Below are positions 8,545 to 49,946 of a stretch of 64,000 nucleotides of DNA, piece after piece. The notes below the pieces were generated by a model. It was not told the DNA's origin. It did no database searches and saw only the letters and a program-made list of their open reading frames with translations. This DNA comes from an uncultured bacterium (GTDB lineage Bacteria; Patescibacteriota; Minisyncoccia; UBA6257; UBA9933): the NCBI GenBank assembly GCA_913009635.1, contig CAJVXI010000001.1, positions 2,915 through 66,914 of the forward strand, read 5' to 3'. Position 1 is the first letter of the stretch. Each line of letters opens with the position of its first letter. Both the position numbers and the translations under genes were made by a program.

Positions 8545-8792
8545 AAATCTTTTTTTCAAAAAAATCTTTTCCCGCCAGCCAACAATAGCGCCTAACAATT
8601 TTTCGTTCATCAGCCGTTGTCACCTCGTTCGCTTTACGATTTTCTGGCGGCTTAAAGGACGCTTCGCTCCCGTCAAAAAATCTACTCACTTCGGAACAAC
8701 GCGTTTGAATTCGCTCAAAACATTAGGCGCTATTATAGTAACAGGCTGGCCACAAAAAAGATTTTTGCTTTTCTTTGGCTACAAAAAGATTT
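8545..8792. repeat. MITE-like or structured element with ~22-bp terminal inverted repeats 'AAAATCTTTTCCCGCCAGCC ... GGCTGGCCACAAAAAAGATTTT'.
   Basis: The termini are conserved with the element at 31249-31470. The inner sequences have diverged but are homologous, and each has a nested inverted repeat. Confidence 0.6.
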
Positions 8793-9356
8793 TTATTTAT
8801 TGGTGGTTGTGTTGAAGAGCTGCGCTTGGGCAGATTGAAAGACCTTGTTAAAAATCGTGAGGTCTTTTTTTGTTATTTTTTTGAGTACAAACTCTCCGGC
8901 TTTCGCTCTTCGAGCTCTTGATACTTGTTTCGGCCTAATACCTATGCGTAAACGCCAGAAATTTTTTGTTTTCAAGGATTTAATTATTGACTCTATGCCT
9001 TTGTGTCCAGCTGAACCGCGTCCATAAGAAAATTTATATTTTTCTAATTCAATATCCGAATCATCATGAACAATTAATATTTCTTTAGGGTCAATTTTAT
9101 TATCTTTAGTGGAGAAATATTTTATTGCTGATAGTACTGCTTTTCCAGATTCATTCATAAAGACAGATGATTTTATGACATGAATTATGAATTGTGAATC
9201 ATGAATTTTGAATTTTGATGCAATAAATAATTTATGTTTTATATTCCAAGCTTCATGTTCTATGAGCCATGATAAAAAAAGTTGCCCCACGTTATGATAA
9301 GTTAAGATGTGTTGGAAATCGGGGTTCCCAAGGCCAATAATCAGCTTGATTTTCAT
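8793..9356 (-). CDS. pth: Peptidyl-tRNA hydrolase.
   Basis: 'IIGLGNPDFQHILTYHNVGQ' is the Pth N-terminal motif. Confidence 0.85.
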   Translation of the reverse strand: MKIKLIIGLGNPDFQHILTYHNVGQLFLSWLIEHEAWNIKHKLFIASKFKIHDSQFIIHVIKSSVFMNESGKAVLSAIKYFSTKDNKIDPKEILIVHDDSDIELEKYKFSYGRGSAGHKGIESIIKSLKTKNFWRLRIGIRPKQVSRARRAKAGEFVLKKITKKDLTIFNKVFQSAQAQLFNTTTNK

Positions 9357-12888: not shown

Positions 12889-13446
12889 ATGACGAATAAA
12901 ATATTGGTTGTGAGCTTAGAAAAAGGATTTGAAAAATTTGAGAAAGAAATAAAAAAAACAGTATTTAAAGCGTTAAGAATTTTAAAAAAGAAAAACGTTT
13001 CAGTGGAGATTTATTTGGTTGGAAGCCCAAAAATGCGGTTTTTAAACAAAAAATTTCGTGGTAAAGATAAAACAGCTGATATATTAAGTTTTGAAGAGCC
13101 CAAAAATGGCTTTATTTATCCTTCGTCATCTGCCACTGGCGGAGGCGAATCAAAATTTAAGAGAATTGGTGAAATATACCTCAATCTTGATATATCGCAG
13201 ATAAACGTAGATGAAACGCAGATAAATCCCCCACATATAAATATATGTGGGATAAACGCAAATAAAAAAATCAGCGAAAATCTGCGTAAAAATCTGCGTG
13301 GATCAGTACTTTTAGTGCATGGCTTGCTTCATCTTTTTGGCTATCATCATAATAAGAAAAATGATAAAATTAGAATGGATAAAGCGGAGCAGAAATTACT
13401 CCTTCAAATTACAGATTCCAAACACCAAGCACCAAATAACAAATAA
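12889..13446 (+). CDS. ybeY: rRNA maturation endoribonuclease YbeY carrying an in-frame ~105-bp palindromic insertion. Its C-terminal codons come from a repeat family E copy.
   Basis: The zinc motif 'VHGLLHLFGYHH' is present. The insertion at 13196-13301 encodes 'ISQINVDETQINPPHINICGINANKKISENLRKNLRG', which is not part of the conserved YbeY fold. Confidence 0.7.
   Translation: MTNKILVVSLEKGFEKFEKEIKKTVFKALRILKKKNVSVEIYLVGSPKMRFLNKKFRGKDKTADILSFEEPKNGFIYPSSSATGGGESKFKRIGEIYLNLDISQINVDETQINPPHINICGINANKKISENLRKNLRGSVLLVHGLLHLFGYHHNKKNDKIRMDKAEQKLLLQITDSKHQAPNNK
13196..13301. repeat. Palindromic mini-element (family F, 'acgcagataaa' units around 'cccccacatataaatatatgtggg') inserted in-frame in ybeY.
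   Basis: Left arm 'acgcagataaa' x2 and right arm 'aaatctgcgt' x2. A related unit sits in secF at 20698-20748. Confidence 0.75.
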
Positions 13447-13576
13447 GCACCAAATTCTAATTCGCCAGCTGGCGAACTAAACACGAGTTTCGATAATTGG
13501 AATTTCGGTCATTGAAATTTACCCCTCAGTCCTGAAATTCTCGGGGTTGAAGGATTTGTGATTTGGAATTTGTTAT
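13412..13576. repeat. Repeat family E copy ('caccaagcaccaaataacaaataa ... cgccagctggcg ... acccctcagtcctgaaattctcggggt').
   Basis: Its reverse complement is at 26602-26778. A 5' fragment forms the end of the ORF at 1196-1247. Confidence 0.85.
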
Positions 13577-14815
13577 TTGGGATTTAGTATTATGTACATC
13601 ACTGCCTTAGATATTGGATCAGCTCAAATTAAGACATTGGTAGCTGAAGTTCAGAAGAATGGACAATTAGCTATAATAAATGTTTTTAAAACACCTTCAG
13701 AAGGAATTCGCAAAGGCGAGGTTATTGATATTGAAGACGCTACTCGTTCAATAAATTCTTCTTTAGCAGAAGTAAAACATTTTAATAAATCCGCGCTTAA
13801 AAATATTTTTGTTAATATTGGTGGAAGTAATGTAAAAATTCATAACTCACGTGGAATTATTGCTGTTTCCAGAGCTGATAATGAAATTAGTCAGGATGAT
13901 ATTGATAGAGTTATTAAGGCATCTCAAGCGATTAATCTTTCTCCAAATAGAATGATTCTTCATACTCTTGCTCGTGAGTTTATTATTGATAATATCAGTA
14001 ACATTAAAGAACCGTTAGGAATGATAGGAACTCGTTTAGAGGTAAATACTTTAATTATTGATGCTTTTTCTCCAGCTGTTAAAAATCTTATTAAATGTAT
14101 TGAAACCGCTGGCGGTAATTTGGGCGGTTTAATTTATGGTCCTTTAGCTGCTGCTCGTTCAGTTTTGACAAAGAATCAAAAAATATTAGGCTCAATTTTA
14201 GTGGATATTGGTTTTGGCACTACCGGTATGGCTGTTTATGAAGATAATAAACTTTTGAATGCTTCTGTTTTTCCTGTTGGTACCGGCAATATTACCAATG
14301 ATTTAGCAATTGGATTAAAATGTTCAATTAAAACAGCTGAAAAGGTAAAACTTTCTTTTGGTTCTGCTTTAGCAAGAGAAGTTCCCAGTAAAGAAAAAGT
14401 TGATATGTATGAAATAGACGAAACTATTAAAGCGTCTCCGAGTCGTAAATTTATTTCTGAAATTATTGAAGTTCGTTTGGCTGAGGTTTTTGAATTTATT
14501 AATAACGAGTTAAAATTTATTGGTAAAATGAGACAGTTGCCGGCAGGCATTGTTCTATGCGGCAGTGGCGCTAAAATGCCTGGAATTGCTGAGTTGGCGA
14601 AACGAGAATTAAAACTGCATGTTCAAATTGGTATTCCTGAGACAGATGTTTTAGAATTAACTAATGCCGAATTCAGCAGTCAGATTGAAGATCCGGAATT
14701 TGCTACTGCGGTTGGACTGTTATTGTGGGGCAATGATCAACTTGCCAGGGATAGTAATTGGCTTCCGATAAAAAAGTTTTCAATAATAAATATTTTAAAA
14801 CATTTCAAACCCTAG
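13577..14815 (+). CDS. ftsA: Cell division protein FtsA. The start may be at 13592.
   Basis: 'ALDIGSAQIKTLVAEV' is an actin-fold phosphate-1 motif. The gene is adjacent to ftsZ. Confidence 0.85.
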   Translation: MGFSIMYITALDIGSAQIKTLVAEVQKNGQLAIINVFKTPSEGIRKGEVIDIEDATRSINSSLAEVKHFNKSALKNIFVNIGGSNVKIHNSRGIIAVSRADNEISQDDIDRVIKASQAINLSPNRMILHTLAREFIIDNISNIKEPLGMIGTRLEVNTLIIDAFSPAVKNLIKCIETAGGNLGGLIYGPLAAARSVLTKNQKILGSILVDIGFGTTGMAVYEDNKLLNASVFPVGTGNITNDLAIGLKCSIKTAEKVKLSFGSALAREVPSKEKVDMYEIDETIKASPSRKFISEIIEVRLAEVFEFINNELKFIGKMRQLPAGIVLCGSGAKMPGIAELAKRELKLHVQIGIPETDVLELTNAEFSSQIEDPEFATAVGLLLWGNDQLARDSNWLPIKKFSIINILKHFKP

Positions 14816-26601: not shown

Positions 26602-26778
26602 AAATTTCAAATAACAAATTCCAAATCTCAAATCCTTCAACCCCGAGAATTTCAGGACCGAGGGGTAAATTCCAATGACCGAAACGTGTTTGAAATTTTA
26701 AATTTAGAATTTGGTGCTTATTTGTTATTTGGTGCTTGGAATTTGGTGCTTTTTAATACTTAGATTTAGCAATATATT
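26602..26778. repeat. Repeat family E copy, reverse orientation.
   Basis: It is the reverse complement of 13412-13576. Confidence 0.85.
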
Positions 26779-30564: not shown

Positions 30565-30675
30565 AGCGTGATATCAATATACGAATGCGTACTAATGATA
30601 CGAATAAATACTAATTCGTATCCATTAGTATAATTAGCATGAATTAGTATATTAGCATTACATTAAGCGAAACGT
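30565..30675. repeat. Repeat family C copy, short form.
   Basis: It ends 'cattaagcgaaacgtATG' at efp. Confidence 0.8.
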
Positions 30676-31248
30676 ATGTTGTCTTATACCGATTTAAAAT
30701 CAGGTGTTTATATAGTGGTTGATTCACAGCCTTATTTAGTGGTGGAGTCAGAGTTTGTGAGAATGCAGCAAAGAAAGCCAGTAATGAAAACGAAAATTAA
30801 GAATTTAATAACTGGCAAAACAGCAGAGAGGTCATTTCAGCCAAGTGACAATATTGAAGAAGCTGAACTTGAAAAGATGAAAGTAATTTTCATTTACGAG
30901 AGCCGCGGAGAATACTGGTTTAGCGAGCTAAACAATCCAAAGAATAGATTTTTATTAAAAGAAGAAGAAATTGGCGAATTAGCCAAGTTTTTAAAGCCAA
31001 ATTTGGAAATTACAGCATTAAAATTCAAAGACAAAATTATTAACATTGAATTGCCAATTAAGGTTGACTATAAAGTAGTTGAAGCGCCGCCTGCCATTAA
31101 GGGTGATACTGCGCAGGGCGGAACTAAAACCGCGGTTATTGAAACTGGTGTTAAAATTACTGTTCCGCTTTTTATTCAAGAAGAAGATATAATTCGTATT
31201 AATACTCAAACTGGTGAGTATGCGGAGAGAGTAGAGAAGGGATCGTAG
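30676..31248 (+). CDS. efp: Elongation factor P.
   Basis: The N-terminal KOW-like domain has 'KPGKG'-region analogues and the three-domain length is correct. Confidence 0.85.
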   Translation: MLSYTDLKSGVYIVVDSQPYLVVESEFVRMQQRKPVMKTKIKNLITGKTAERSFQPSDNIEEAELEKMKVIFIYESRGEYWFSELNNPKNRFLLKEEEIGELAKFLKPNLEITALKFKDKIINIELPIKVDYKVVEAPPAIKGDTAQGGTKTAVIETGVKITVPLFIQEEDIIRINTQTGEYAERVEKGS

Positions 31249-31470
31249 AAAATCTTTTCTTGCCAGCCAAGCTAAGTAAAAATCTTTTCTCGTTCGTAGT
31301 GCTACACCAAATGAAAATCTTACTTCGCTCATAACTAGAAAATACCACCCTGCTACGCGGGTACCCGGTATTTTCTCTATTCGCTCAGAGATTTTCTATT
31401 CGGCTCCGCAATACTCTCTGTGAAAAGATTTTTGCTTAGTTAGTTAACGGGCTGGCTACAAAAAGATTTT
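31249..31470. repeat. MITE-like or structured element, second copy, with termini 'AAAATCTTTTCTTGCCAGCC ... GGCTGGCTACAAAAAGATTTT'.
   Basis: The termini match 8545-8792. It has the nested inverted repeat 'gctaagtaaaaatcttttc ... gaaaagatttttgcttagtt'. Confidence 0.6.
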
Positions 31471-31502
31471 CTACTAGTCTTAATTGAGAAAAATAAGAAA
31501 AT

Positions 31503-31530
31503 AAAAAAGCCGGCTTTAGAGGTAGCCGGC
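31503..31530 (-). terminator. Rho-independent terminator-like hairpin on the minus strand (gccggc..gccggc followed by a T-run on the - strand).
   Basis: On the + strand it reads 'aaaaaagccggctttagaggtagccggc'. Confidence 0.4.
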
Positions 31531-31800
31531 AACCTTTAATTTGTGGTGCTTACGCATTTCTTCTTCGTTCGAAGCACCAATTAACGAAGAATATCTCTGT
31601 CTAGTATACTCGCACGGCCGAGAAACGCCATTGTGCGATAATCTATATCTTTTGTATTGGATAACTCGCTGAGCGATTATTCAAGCAATTTCAGTGTACT
31701 ATTAATAGTATACACATATTAAAACATTTGTCAATAGTGCGCCAAAACATCTCATTTTTAGCCCAAATAAATCCCACACTTTTCATTCGAGAGGTGCGGG

Positions 31801-31840
31801 ATAAACGGCTCACACGGCGTGTGAGCCGTTTATTTTCTAA
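31801..31840 (+). terminator. Perfect hairpin 'aaacggctcacacggcgtgtgagccgttt' followed by a T-run. An identical hairpin is at 42080-42112.
   Basis: A 12-bp GC-containing stem is followed by 'attttc'. No + strand CDS lies upstream within 550 bp. Confidence 0.55.
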
Positions 31841-31980
31841 ATTTTCAATTTATCATAATTTAACGTAATCAAATTACGTTAAATTATTTAATACAAAGCG
31901 TCATTTGAATGACACTTTATTTATTGGTTAAGTTTGATAATTTGAGAAAAAAAATTTCTGATGATATAGTTTAGTTAATT

Positions 31981-33219
31981 ATGAAAGCAAAAGATAAAAA
32001 AATCGTATTCGTAGCGCTATCAGGCGGCGTTGATTCAAGTGTTGCGGCTTTATTATTAAAAAAACAGGGCTATTATGTAGTTGGTGTTTTTATGCGTTGT
32101 TGGAGAGATGAAAGCCCCGACGCTTCGGTCGGGGCAAGCTGTATGGAAAAAGATGCTGAAGATGCCAGAAAGGTGGCGGAAAAATTGGAAATTCCTTTTT
32201 ATGTTTGGGATTTTGAAAAAGAGTATAAGAAAAGAGTGGTTGATTATATGGTTAATGGTTATAAAAAAGGCATCACTCCTAATCCTGATGTAATGTGCAA
32301 TAAAGAAATCAAGTTTGGTTTGTTTTTGGAAAAAGCGCTGAAGATGGGAGCGGATTATGTGGCAACGGGACACTATGTCCGGCTTTACAGCGTTGTAAAT
32401 GTTCAAAATGTTGTAGATGTTGTAAATGAAAAACAATTACAACAAGCGAAGCGATCCAACAAGCGAAGCGATACAGCATTACAACTTTTTGAGGCTAAGG
32501 ACAAGAATAAAGACCAATCTTATTTTCTTTGGACCTTAACGCAAAAACAATTACAGCATTGCCTTTTTCCTATTGGTGATTATTTGAAGTCCGAAGTTCG
32601 GAAAATCGCTAAAAAAGCTGATTTATTAACAGCTGAGAAAAAGGATTCTCAGGGTATTTGTTTTTTGGGCAAAGTAACACTTGATGATTTTTTGGGTAAA
32701 TATATTCCTAAAAAGAAAGGGGATATTATTAATATTTCAGGGGAAAAAATCGGCGAACACAAAGGCGCTTATTTTTATACTATTGGCCAGCGGCGCGGAC
32801 TTGGAATTGGCGGCCGCCCAATAAAATTGGGCGAGTCTCGTCCCAAAGGGACGGGAGGCGCACCTTATTATGTCGTTGAAAAAGACGTTAAGAAAAACAT
32901 TATTAAAGTTGCCGAAGGAAAAAGCGAAGCGCTTTATAAAAAAGAAATTGAATTATCGGATGTTAATTTTATCAATCCTATAATTCATAATTCAAAATTC
33001 ATAATTCCAGTGTTGGCTCGGGTGCGTTATAGGCAGCCTTTAATAAAAGCCAAATTAGTAATTAGTAATCAGGAATTAGTAAATAGGAAAAACAAAAAGT
33101 CCCTAGTTACTAGTTACTATTTACTATTTACTGAGCCCATTAAATTCATCGCTCCTGGCCAGTCAGCAGTGTTTTATAGTTCAAAAGGTGAAATGTTGGG
33201 CGGAGGTGTGATAAAATAA
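31981..33219 (+). CDS. mnmA: tRNA-specific 2-thiouridylase MnmA with small repeat insertions.
   Basis: PP-loop 'VALSGGVDSSV' and the region 'CNKEIKFGLFLEKA'. In-frame repeats are at 32108-32135, 32441-32473 and 33095-33135. Confidence 0.85.
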   Translation: MKAKDKKIVFVALSGGVDSSVAALLLKKQGYYVVGVFMRCWRDESPDASVGASCMEKDAEDARKVAEKLEIPFYVWDFEKEYKKRVVDYMVNGYKKGITPNPDVMCNKEIKFGLFLEKALKMGADYVATGHYVRLYSVVNVQNVVDVVNEKQLQQAKRSNKRSDTALQLFEAKDKNKDQSYFLWTLTQKQLQHCLFPIGDYLKSEVRKIAKKADLLTAEKKDSQGICFLGKVTLDDFLGKYIPKKKGDIINISGEKIGEHKGAYFYTIGQRRGLGIGGRPIKLGESRPKGTGGAPYYVVEKDVKKNIIKVAEGKSEALYKKEIELSDVNFINPIIHNSKFIIPVLARVRYRQPLIKAKLVISNQELVNRKNKKSLVTSYYLLFTEPIKFIAPGQSAVFYSSKGEMLGGGVIK

Positions 33220-36012: not shown

Positions 36013-36864
36013 ATGAAAATTGATAATTGGGTTATTTTGTTGGTTTTGTTTTTAATTCTTTTTGATGTTTTTGTTTGGAAGCAGGTTGTTTTTGACAGTC
36101 CGAATGAAAATCTGGAAGTTTATTTCTTGGAAGTTGGACAAGGCGACAGTGAATTGGTTTTTTTGCCGGGCGGGGTCAAAATCCTGATTGACGGAGGTCC
36201 TAATAGCAAAATTCTTGATGAATTATCGTCAATTTTAAGGCCAACTGACCGCTATATTGATTTAGCGGTTCTTTCTCATCCGGAGTTAGATCATTTTGGC
36301 GGTTTGATAGATGTTTTAAAAAGATATCAAATTGGCGCTTTTATTTTTAACGGTCGACGCGGCACAGCTCCAGCTTTCCATGATTTAGAGAAAATCATAA
36401 AAGAAAATAACATCGCAGCCGTTGTTCTTGGCGAAGGAGACGGCATTAAATATATTGAAAATCAGTTTAGTATTCTATCTCCATCAGAGGAATTTTTAAG
36501 CAGTTATGAATTAAATGACACGACTTTAGTAATGAAGTTTGAGAATGAAAGCGTTAAAATTTTATTTACCGGAGATATTGATAAGAAAATTGAATATTAT
36601 TTAATTGAAAAATACGACTTAAATGTTGATATTCTTAAGGTCGCTCATCATGGCTCAAGATTTTCTTCAAGTGAGGGGTTTATAAAAGAAACAAGCCCGA
36701 AAGTATCAGTTATTGAGGTTGGTAAGAATTCTTATGGTCATCCAACAAAGTATGTTTTAAATAAATTAGCTTCAATTGGTTCCCAGATTTTTCGTACTGA
36801 CAAAAACGGAACTGTGAAATTAGTAATAGACGCAGAAAATATAAGTATTTTTAATAAATATTAA
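36013..36864 (+). CDS. ComEC-type metallo-beta-lactamase domain protein. This is the C-terminal ComEC domain encoded as a separate gene.
   Basis: 'VYFLEVGQGDSELVFLPGGVKILIDGG', 'SHPELDHFGGL', 'LFTGDID' and 'KVAHHGSRFSS'. Confidence 0.75.
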   Translation: MKIDNWVILLVLFLILFDVFVWKQVVFDSPNENLEVYFLEVGQGDSELVFLPGGVKILIDGGPNSKILDELSSILRPTDRYIDLAVLSHPELDHFGGLIDVLKRYQIGAFIFNGRRGTAPAFHDLEKIIKENNIAAVVLGEGDGIKYIENQFSILSPSEEFLSSYELNDTTLVMKFENESVKILFTGDIDKKIEYYLIEKYDLNVDILKVAHHGSRFSSSEGFIKETSPKVSVIEVGKNSYGHPTKYVLNKLASIGSQIFRTDKNGTVKLVIDAENISIFNKY

Positions 36865-37142: not shown

Positions 37143-37197
37143 ACAAAGATAACGGCCTAGAAAAATTTAAACGCTCAAGTATTATACTTGAGCGTTT

Positions 37198-38148
37198 TTA
37201 TTTTTTTAAAGCTAATGAAATAATTTTATCTAAGAGTTTTGGAAATTCAAGACCTACCAATGCGGCAGATTGCGGTAAGAGGGATGTTTCAGTCATTCCT
37301 GGCAAGGTATTTAATTCTAAAATATAAATTTTGTCTTTATTTATCCTATTAGAAATTCCATTTCTAATTGGGTTAATTATAAAATCAGAGCGTGAATAAT
37401 GACGGCATTTTAATATTTTATGCGCGATAATTGATTGTTTTTGAATTTCTTTGGTTAATTTATTTGATATTTTTGCCGGCGTTATCTCATTGGAAGCGCC
37501 TTTTTTATATTTGGCTTCATAATCAAAGAATTTATATTTTTTATTAGGGATTATCTCTGTTATTGGCAAAGCAAAGAATTTTTTGCCTTTATAATTTTCA
37601 ATAATACCGCATGTAAATTCTCGACCAGATAAATATTCTTCCGCCAGAATTTTCTTATCGTATTTTTTTGCCAGATTTATGGCTTTTTTTAGTTGAGATT
37701 TTTTATAGACAATTGTCATTCCAATACTTGAACCGCGGCCAATTGGCTTAACGATCAACGGAGGATTAGTGGTTATCATTGGTATATTTAATCCGGCAGA
37801 TTTAAATAATTTTCTACTGGCGATTTTATCCATTGCAAGTCGTGATGATTTCGGTCCCGAACCAGTATAGGCAATTTTATATTGTTCAAGTAGTTTTTGA
37901 ATTACACCGTCTTCGCCAAATTCACCGTGCATTGCGTTAAATATTAAATCAACTTTTTTTAGGAATTTTTTAGCAGGAATTTTTTTACCATTTTCAAGCC
38001 AAATTTCTTTTTTAGAAATAACACAAGGAAAAATAAAATATTTATCTTTATTTAAGTTTTTAATAATCATTTCGCCGGTTTTTAACGAGATGTCATGTTC
38101 AGCCGAAGGCCCTCCCATCAATACGCCGATTTTAAGCTTCTTTTTCAT
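37198..38148 (-). CDS. ddl: D-alanine--D-alanine ligase.
   Basis: 'KIGVLMGGPSAEHDISLKTG' and the ATP-grasp C-terminal domain. Confidence 0.9.
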   Translation of the reverse strand: MKKKLKIGVLMGGPSAEHDISLKTGEMIIKNLNKDKYFIFPCVISKKEIWLENGKKIPAKKFLKKVDLIFNAMHGEFGEDGVIQKLLEQYKIAYTGSGPKSSRLAMDKIASRKLFKSAGLNIPMITTNPPLIVKPIGRGSSIGMTIVYKKSQLKKAINLAKKYDKKILAEEYLSGREFTCGIIENYKGKKFFALPITEIIPNKKYKFFDYEAKYKKGASNEITPAKISNKLTKEIQKQSIIAHKILKCRHYSRSDFIINPIRNGISNRINKDKIYILELNTLPGMTETSLLPQSAALVGLEFPKLLDKIISLALKK

Positions 38149-40171: not shown

Positions 40172-40204
40172 GCGGCTATTGACTCTTTATTTTTATGTTA
40201 TAAT

Positions 40205-40357
40205 TATAGCGAGTTCCAGTTAGTGATTTCTCGGATCAAATCGGATTTTCAGGGAGAACAACAGCGCTTTGGCTCTTGGGCTAAAGTTGAGTTCACCCAC
40301 TTGGCGAATAGCCGAGAGAATCCAACGGCTGGAACTCATGAAAAAGCAGTGGAATGA
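40205..40357 (+). ncRNA. Candidate structured RNA or leader. It has the long-range pairing 'gagttccag...ctggaactc', nested 'ttctcgg/ccgagaa' pairing and an intrinsic terminator hairpin 'aaaaagcagtggaatgactgcttttt'.
   Basis: The pairing was read by eye. It lies in a 330-bp gap upstream of rpmB. No family was recognised. Confidence 0.3.
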
Positions 40358-40503
40358 CTGCTTTTTCGTTTCTAAACTTACCGAAGGATTGATACTTCGG
40401 AAATGTGCTCAGTATCAATCTCCTCGAGTCTGAGTCTCGGAGTCGAAGATCTGAGCTTACCGAAGGATTGATATTTTATAAATTATTTGTAATACTTATT
40501 GTT

Positions 40504-41749: not shown

Positions 41750-42076
41750 ATGAAATACTTAATTTTAATTATTGCCGGGATTTTGGGGATTTGGGTTGGC
41801 AGGAAGTTGGCGATGTGCAGGACGATGAATAAAGGTAGTACGGTTGGCAAGGGAAATTTAATGGAATTGAATGAAGCGAAAAAAATTGCCAAAGAGAAAA
41901 ACAAAGAGAAAATACTTGAATTATTAAAAGAAAAGGACCAAATCACAAATAACGATATTGAAAGCGCCTTAGGTGTTTCTGACGCGACAGCTACTCGTTA
42001 TTTTGAGGAATTAGAACAAGAGGGAAAGATAATCCAAAAAGGAGAAGGAAGAGGAGTTTATTATATAAAAACTTAA
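41750..42076 (+). CDS. Winged-helix DNA-binding protein, possibly with an N-terminal TM helix.
   Basis: The C-terminal wHTH is 'KILELLKEKDQITNNDIESALGVSDATATRYFEELEQEGKIIQKG'. Confidence 0.4.
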   Translation: MKYLILIIAGILGIWVGRKLAMCRTMNKGSTVGKGNLMELNEAKKIAKEKNKEKILELLKEKDQITNNDIESALGVSDATATRYFEELEQEGKIIQKGEGRGVYYIKT

Positions 42077-42077
42077 T

Positions 42078-42118
42078 AAATAAACGGCTCACACGGCGTG
42101 TGAGCCGTTTATTGTGGG
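42078..42118 (+). terminator. Hairpin 'aaacggctcacacggcgtgtgagccgttt' plus 'attgtgggtaattttt'. It is identical to the hairpin at 31801-31840.
   Basis: It sits immediately 3' of the CDS that ends at 42076. Confidence 0.5.
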
Positions 42119-49500: not shown

Positions 49501-49946
49501 ATTAAGCAAAATCCTCCTAAATGGTGGATTTTGTTTATATGAATAATTTATTTAGTTAGAAATAATACACATCCGCTCTGCGGCGCAAGTTATCGCTTAT
49601 AGTAATTTCTACGGCAATCTAAATACTCAGCGGGAATTTCTAACGGGATTTATTGACAAAAAATTTGATATTTGTTAACTTTAACTAAAGTTGAACAATG
49701 ATTAGATTATCATTAAATTTAGAATAATATAGGAAATATACGACAGATTTAGCCAAAATTTTTTAAAAAATAGCTAGGCTATGTCTGGCTGTTTTTTTGT
49801 TGTTACGTCCAATATGAGGATTTTAAAAGCGTTTTTCTAAAAGAAAAACATAGAGTTCTTTATTGGGTATGAGATTTAAGCATTAATCAAGAAAAGGAAT
49901 TCAAATAAAATTTAAGTATTTTCTATTTGAAATTTTTCTACTGGGT

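Follow-up and report, generated by a model that had tools for sequence, protein, structure and literature searches.

Predictors such as SIPHT and sRNAPredict seek bacterial small-RNA genes as intergenic units that end in an orphan terminator, and REP/BIME palindromes and Correia-type MITEs are elements that can act as terminators or insulators. To our knowledge, the regulatory RNAs of Wolfebacteria-type genomes are essentially uncharted. We analyzed the spacer between efp (elongation factor P) and mnmA (tRNA 2-thiouridine synthase) in a stretch of 64,000 nt, hereafter the window, from the genome of an uncultured bacterium of the Patescibacteriota (contig CAJVXI010000001.1), in which a sequence-only reading had proposed an independent plus-strand small RNA at 31531-31840. 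A comparison of this locus with described systems showed that: 1) Like orphan promoter-terminator small-RNA genes, it holds an ORF-free unit of ~200 nt whose predicted sigma-70-like promoter and Rho-independent terminator share one strand; unlike them, the candidate comes without conservation, covariation or a predicted target, and lies on the strand opposite to the one first proposed. 2) As in REP/BIME and Correia elements, the plus-strand hairpin of the locus is a dispersed intergenic palindrome with flanking modules, and a MITE-like palindrome adjoins the region; however, it is unrelated in sequence to REP or Correia elements, and the 270-nt core of the region is single-copy in the ~80 kb of this genome available to us. 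3) It resembles cis-antisense and type I toxin-antitoxin loci in having a short predicted minus-strand transcript that would overlap plus-strand read-through, and in the membrane-protein ORF that a sister genome carries at the site, but unlike type I systems the window has neither a toxin-like ORF here nor a convincing second promoter for a partner RNA. 4) Interleaved perfect stems of 8 and 9 bp, with loops compatible with folding on the minus strand, recall H-type pseudoknots such as those of SAM-II, preQ1-II and the fluoride riboswitch, yet no Rfam pseudoknot family matches and the same interleaving is seen in ten intergenic DNA repeats of the window. The candidate fits known kinds, namely orphan small-RNA-like units and REP-like terminator repeats, without membership in any family.

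Table 1. Features of the efp-mnmA gap and of related sites elsewhere in the window. Promoters, terminators and the minus-strand RNA are predicted.
Feature	Position	Strand	Remarks
efp (elongation factor P)	30676-31248	+	ORF; Pfam EFP_N and Elong-fact-P_C
MITE-like imperfect palindrome	31245-31474		termini TCGTAGAAAATCTTTTCTTGCCAGC ... GGCTACAAAAAGATTTTCTAC; adjoins efp stop codon
Minus-strand intrinsic terminator	31497-31530	-	stem 31530..31509, then U-tract TTTTTTATTTTC at 31508..31497
Predicted ~200-nt RNA, body	31531-31700	-	promoter and terminator on one strand
Stem TGGTGCTT / AAGCACCA	31544-31551 with 31572-31579		8 bp, perfect
Stem TTCTTCGTT / AACGAAGAA	31561-31569 with 31583-31591		9 bp, perfect
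Stem TCGCAC / GTGCGA	31610-31615 with 31633-31638		
14-nt palindrome TACTATTAATAGTA	31698-31711		perfect; overlaps the -10 box and predicted start of the minus-strand promoter
Sigma-70-type promoter TTGACA-16-TATACT	31734..31707	-	near-consensus, 11/12
Hairpin E	31772-31801	+	11 pairs, two of them G-U
Plus-strand intrinsic terminator	31798-31848	+	18-pair stem at 31798-31836, -25.6 kcal/mol; tail TTTATTTTCTAAATTTT
Two extra hairpins	31855-31918	+	31855-31887 and 31895-31918; module travelling with the repeat hairpin
mnmA promoter TTGAGA-17-(TGa)TATAGT	31942-31970	+	10/12; extended -10 with TG
mnmA (tRNA 2-thiouridine synthase)	31981-33219	+	ORF; Pfam tRNA_Me_trans
Conserved structured RNA	40179-40372	+	promoter, ~130-nt body at 40209-40340, terminator at 40341-40372
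Second copy of the plus-strand hairpin	42080-42113	+	starts 3 nt past the stop of a winged-HTH ORF (41750-42076)

The gap between efp and mnmA measures 732 nt (31249-31980), in agreement with the ~730 non-coding bp first reported, and the longest ORFs with a start codon in the region are of 46, 43 and 40 aa, which bears out the earlier statement that none reaches 60 aa. No ORF bearing a Shine-Dalgarno sequence was found in the candidate region; those on the minus strand downstream of the minus-strand promoter are 13-16 aa long and not hydrophobic. Searches of every stop-to-stop frame of the region against Pfam and PHROGs retrieved no family, and tblastn searches of the window gap with all ORFs located between efp and mnmA in relatives gave no match. 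A search of the whole window against Rfam 15 returned nothing at gathering thresholds, so the cmscan proposed as a check of the candidate placed it in no family. A permissive search of 31200-32000 gave only hairpin-driven matches at E >= 0.13, the best being rpsL_ricks at 31.9 bits (E = 0.13; threshold, 60). ARAGORN detected no tRNA or tmRNA, and the visual impression that the region resembles none of tmRNA, SRP RNA, RNase P RNA and 6S RNA is upheld by these Rfam and ARAGORN results. Tandem repeats and guide-RNA-like arrays were not found in the region. A phage or mobile origin was rejected, as the hairpin and pseudoknot patterns had no match in viral contigs. At ~1.5-3.6 kb to the left of the window (L170:2816-4953) there are two LAGLIDADG homing-endonuclease ORFs together with ORFs for '23S rRNA intervening sequence protein', which suggests an intron-bearing rRNA gene nearby.

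Terminator-like sites are crowded around the gap, with nine in 30600-32300 against 1.1 expected, and the minus- and plus-strand terminators rank among the few strong ones found over 60 kb. Each has a GC-rich stem-loop followed by a U-tract, as predicted from sequence, and each was called by the scan; the bracketing of the region by opposing terminator-like hairpins, as first described, is therefore real, and the stems named at that time are all present. Thus, the region is non-coding and is bracketed by two genuine-looking terminators. Short-read assemblies made independently from the same population break within the gap: one contig stops in the center of the MITE-like element (31374), and others start at 31766 and at 31801, where the plus-strand hairpin begins; these breaks are consistent with palindromes and repeats disrupting assembly.

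A structured, terminator-ended region directly upstream of mnmA and on its strand might be taken for a cis-regulatory leader, attenuator or riboswitch of that gene. However, mnmA has a predicted extended -10 promoter of its own beyond the terminator, with 10 nt left to the ATG, which would make the mRNA nearly leaderless, and the closest relative (locus L001) has an analogous TTGAAG-17-TATAGT that ends 6 nt ahead of its mnmA ATG. Further, a stretch of 145 nt with repeat hairpins separates the end of the terminator from the ATG. In relatives, mnmA is coupled to efp at the level of translation and has no leader, and no cis-regulatory family of Rfam matches. We hence regard a leader function as scarcely credible.

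The gene order traG (on the minus strand), efp, mnmA and cobO is kept in relatives, and comparison of the efp-mnmA spacing across them bears directly on the history of the gap. In L001, whose EF-P and MnmA are 90% and 74% identical to those of the window, the gap is likewise ~700 nt, and these two are the only such gaps among the relatives compared. In the next-closest relatives the spacing is -4, -4 and +3 nt, such that the genes overlap or abut, and many others have gaps of 11-100 nt. Judging from these spacings, the whole gap is a lineage-specific insertion. Its first component is the MITE-like element, which is 67% self-complementary across ~230 nt and whose first terminal repeat contains the efp stop codon (TAG). 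The 25-nt termini (TCGTAGAAAWTCTTTTCTYGCCAGC) at the stop codon of efp are conserved between the window and L001 (L001:2609-2822), the interiors of the two elements are unalignable, and further copies of the terminus occur at 8561-8793 of the window, in the spacer given as 8545-8792. Beyond the MITE termini, the two gaps have in common that a terminator follows the MITE, that a unit lies on the minus strand and that the mnmA promoter is leaderless; apart from these termini and this layout, nothing in the L001 gap aligns with that of the window. A direct repeat, TTGAGAAAAATAA at 31484-31496 and TTGAGAAAAAAAA at 31942-31954, flanks a block of 458 bp containing the candidate region. The second of these copies is the -35 region of the mnmA promoter, and TTGAGAAATAAAA follows directly after the MITE of L001 (L001:2830-2842). 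This repeat may stem from duplication of a target site or promoter, or from chance in A-rich sequence (estimated p ~0.2-0.4).

The minus-strand unit of L001 (L001:2887-3054) is a 55-aa ORF, MIIVSVILAIIFSIFQFLQGMRLVQATERKKKKETIFWGIVNVVAIAILVMLGRM, which has an AGGAGG Shine-Dalgarno sequence and two predicted transmembrane helices, matches no Pfam family above threshold, and runs up to a bidirectional terminator. It takes the place, between the MITE and terminator on one side and mnmA on the other, that the candidate region takes in the window. The window retains a minus-strand promoter and terminator, and its gap might be what remains of a gene for a small protein or a type I toxin-antitoxin-like system in which a comparable minus-strand ORF has decayed. 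Against this, the L001 peptide is untraceable in the window by tblastn, no frame of the region has a hydrophobic stretch or a family match, and the ORFs that remain on this strand are the 13-16 aa ones without Shine-Dalgarno sequences noted above. Independent assemblies agree on the sequence, so a frameshift artefact does not account for the lack of a longer frame. Such a relic is, in our estimate, very unlikely.

Conservation in relatives, another check proposed for the candidate, also came out negative, and its absence had been named beforehand among the grounds for refuting the candidate: L001 cannot be aligned, efp and mnmA overlap in the next relatives, and neither blastn nor nhmmer nor a covariance model built on the single sequence of the minus-strand RNA (R1) recovered a homologue from ~0.8-1.05 Mb of syntenic loci in relatives. 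Scans of genome contigs and of metagenome contigs with MnmA, a search of 5.8 billion proteins and look-ups of contigs by exact protein yielded strains at 99.9% identity and relatives whose MnmA is at most 74% identical, with nothing between 74% and 100%. Assemblies of the same population (ERZ1742238 NODE_89 of 95.6 kb, ERZ1742235, ERZ909563-6 of PRJDB5792, GCA_011039985.1 and SRR7787004) are 99.8-100% identical and differ in the interval by one SNP, 31696 G to T. An NDK protein identical to that of the window carries the NCBI label 'Candidatus Wolfebacteria bacterium', and the relatives found through MnmA are MAGs of Paceibacterota and Patescibacteria. As a positive control, we used an RNA encoded at 40209-40340 of the window, which is 85% identical in Hain-H41, a genome where efp and mnmA overlap, and which is detectable even in relatives at 53-55% MnmA identity. 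Because this RNA is easily found at an equal distance, the negative result for the gap carries weight.

The earlier argument for a plus-strand transcript was that a terminator without an upstream coding sequence implies an independent RNA. The copy of the plus-strand hairpin that had been noticed beside the gene at 41750-42076 is indeed exact over a 34-nt core (31801-31834), and two more copies were detected in L166, ~10 kb of the same contig outside the window, giving four in ~80 kb. One of these (L166:14296-14327) has a loop shortened by one nt, and the other (L166:14118-14150) has diverged by a compensatory change of CA..TG to AA..TT that keeps the stem. The family follows the pattern ATAAACGGCT-CACAC-GGC-GTGTG-AGCCGTTTAT, a TTCGCGCGAA palindrome recurs after two of its copies, and the copies other than that in the gap sit after plus-strand genes or between convergent genes. 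The two extra hairpins downstream of the terminator accompany it as a module, with 73% identity across 71 nt to L166:14331-14396. Multiple near-identical intergenic copies are a property of the plus-strand hairpin only; the core (31531-31797) and the minus-strand terminator each occur once in the ~80 kb. As a member of a dispersed family the plus-strand hairpin requires no upstream gene of its own. Moreover, no strong terminator for efp is seen on the plus strand ahead of 31798, the hairpin at 31509-31530 being followed there by just a weak T tail, and efp read-through can therefore explain the terminator. Its simplest role would be that of halting such read-through ahead of the leaderless mnmA. 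The best plus-strand promoter-like site, TTAACG-18-TATACT, scores 9/12, a level reached by chance (~80 per 20 kb). Hence, with a repeat for a hairpin, a promoter at chance level and read-through sufficing, the step from terminator to independent transcript does not hold. Elsewhere in the window, a perfect 13-bp bidirectional terminator at 37169-37197 lies between a convergent gene of the metallo-beta-lactamase fold (36013-36864) and ddl (37198-38148, minus strand), and illustrates a terminator serving real genes in this genome.

What could still speak for an independent plus-strand RNA of ~220-300 nt ending at this terminator, beyond the strength of the terminator itself, is its folding. The plus strand of the 310-nt interval folds with z = -7.2 relative to shuffled sequences, mostly on account of the terminator; the core without it gives z = -3.15 on the plus and -0.72 on the minus strand. 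G-U pairs likewise favor the plus strand, both in a hairpin at 31694-31743 and in hairpin E, which on account of its two G-U pairs is stabler on the plus strand (-16.4 versus -13.4 kcal/mol). However, when all 25 intergenic regions of at least 120 nt in the window were folded in the same way, the other 24 had a median z of ~-3.7, and 14 of them scored -3.15 or lower; the fold of the core thus matches the intergenic background. One pair of the hairpin at 31694-31743 is lost through the strain SNP at 31696. Taken with the chance-level promoter, the repeat-derived terminator, the blank Rfam searches and the lack of conservation, this leaves the plus-strand small RNA as first proposed distinctly improbable.

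The same background applies to the interleaved stems. The 8-bp and 9-bp stems (31544-31591) have the topology of an H-type pseudoknot, and the loop lengths (4 nt for loop 1 and 9 nt for loop 3) favor the minus strand. Eleven such interleaved pairs are present in the window against 0.7 in shuffles, and the other ten are all in intergenic repeats. An arm motif, AAGCACCAA, occurs nine times against 0.8 expected, mostly in intergenic repeats. As spacers elsewhere fold alike and interleave in their repeats, neither folding nor the pseudoknot discriminates an RNA gene from a repeat-rich spacer, and we rejected the folding z-score as evidence for an RNA and regard that from the interleaved stems as weakened. 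The repeats themselves are diverse: a ~170-nt element built of AAGCACCAA(AT) oligomers is present in inverted copies 94-95% identical at 1205-1251, 13418-13585 and 26602-26751; the spacers at 44-59 kb, including 49501-49946, are long, repeat-filled and strongly folding and lie between genes of the ribosomal-protein operon, that between rpsJ (S10) and rplC (L3) being of 446 nt; and repeat families D1-D8 recur between ribosomal-protein genes.

The strongest positive signal of the region is on the minus strand. Here, a near-consensus promoter lies 177 nt upstream of the stem of the minus-strand terminator, and this terminator, which has a GCCGGCT/AGCCGGC stem of 7 bp with six GC pairs (-14.1 kcal/mol) and a run of six T, is unique in the window and among the loci compared. 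A promoter aimed at a unique terminator on the same strand predicts an ORF-free RNA of ~200 nt, running from ~31700 to ~31497, which would contain hairpins at 31661-31680 and 31610-31638 in addition to the interleaved stems. The perfect 14-nt palindrome over the -10 box might be an operator. An 11/12 promoter site arises in 1.2% of shuffles of 31531-31800. Across the whole window there are five such sites against 5.05 expected from shuffles, so that the minus-strand promoter could be a chance match; three of the four others are correctly oriented upstream of rpsL, tuf and a trpR-like gene. The predicted RNA is no better folded than shuffled sequences (z = -1.9 with the terminator, -0.72 without), and its duplex energies with 68 translation-start regions are no better than those of shuffled RNAs. 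Having no homologue, it is without covariation support. The sequence elements, their repeated or unique state, the course of insertion and the lack of coding potential and of homologues are shown by the present data, whereas firing of the promoter, accumulation of the RNA and any action that it may have are inferred.

The above observations are best accommodated if efp and mnmA were ancestrally fused and then separated by a lineage-specific insertion mosaic of ~730 bp, which left a minus-strand non-coding unit next to a repeat-derived plus-strand insulator; this is a tentative reading, to which we assign a probability of roughly 40%. In such a mosaic, the MITE-like palindrome would have come to lie against the efp stop codon. 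Next to it, transcription on the minus strand would begin at ~31700, cross ~170 nt rich in hairpins and devoid of ORFs, and terminate at 31530..31497, and its product would be a non-coding RNA of ~200 nt, antisense to any efp read-through. The repeat-family hairpin would then stop read-through from efp, or any other on the plus strand, before mnmA, and mnmA would be expressed from its own promoter as a nearly leaderless mRNA. The simplest role of the minus-strand RNA, if it has any, would be cis-antisense action or transcriptional insulation of efp and mnmA from each other. Two further findings go against the minus-strand RNA: L001 holds a protein-coding ORF, not a similar RNA, at the equivalent place, and the stem arms resemble repeat motifs of this genome, as would be expected of repeat-derived filler.

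In its alternative form the gap would be just such filler, with the 270-nt core being decayed insertion or repeat DNA, the terminators insulators or relics, the promoter a chance match, and no stable RNA being made. The intergenic regions of this genome are inflated by palindromic repeats that fold as well as the core, the interleaved stems carry the signature of such repeats, the arm motif and the plus-strand hairpin are both repeats, there is no conservation whatever, and the count of 11/12 promoter sites equals chance. Against these stand the single-copy state of the core in ~80 kb of the same genome, the correct order, orientation and ~177-nt distance of the minus-strand promoter and terminator, and the fact that this unique terminator has no minus-strand gene to serve in the window, whereas its counterpart in L001 serves one. 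We accordingly treat non-functional filler as a real possibility, though one that falls short of even odds. A bolder version of the preferred mosaic reading is that the minus-strand RNA (31700 to 31497) is private to the species, is controlled through a palindromic operator, folds into an H-type pseudoknot before its terminator, and has replaced the membrane-protein gene of the sister lineage as an antisense or insulator element that uncouples mnmA from efp; taken as a whole, this version is speculative and we think it unlikely.

The RNA used above as a positive control is conserved and structured. It has a predicted extended -10 promoter (TGTTATAAT at 40196-40204), a body in which an 11-bp helix closes a multi-way junction, and a strong terminator. 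Relatives of it were found at L173:3101-3301, L176:1335-1535, L032:2295-2460 and L023:8492-8625, with 85% and 79% identity in two genomes and detectable similarity in two distant ones. Compensatory changes are seen in 9 of 39 consensus pairs, and pairing extends to 91.6% of the cells, a share that falls to 25-55% on sliding the partners. No match was obtained in Rfam even at E <= 10. In four genomes the gene order is aspS-ndk-RNA-rpmB, and in L032 the RNA is instead followed by rpsP, a KH-domain gene, efp and mnmA. These differing contexts suggest either an independent housekeeping RNA, perhaps a divergent SRP RNA or 6S RNA, or an element associated with ribosomal-protein genes.

Hence, the interval singled out at first adds at most one unconserved small-RNA candidate in an uncultured CPR genome. 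It also carries a lesson of method, in that where palindromic repeats pack the spacers, orphan terminators and good folds are poor evidence for RNA genes. The RNA at 40209-40372, absent from Rfam and supported by covariation, is a far better candidate.
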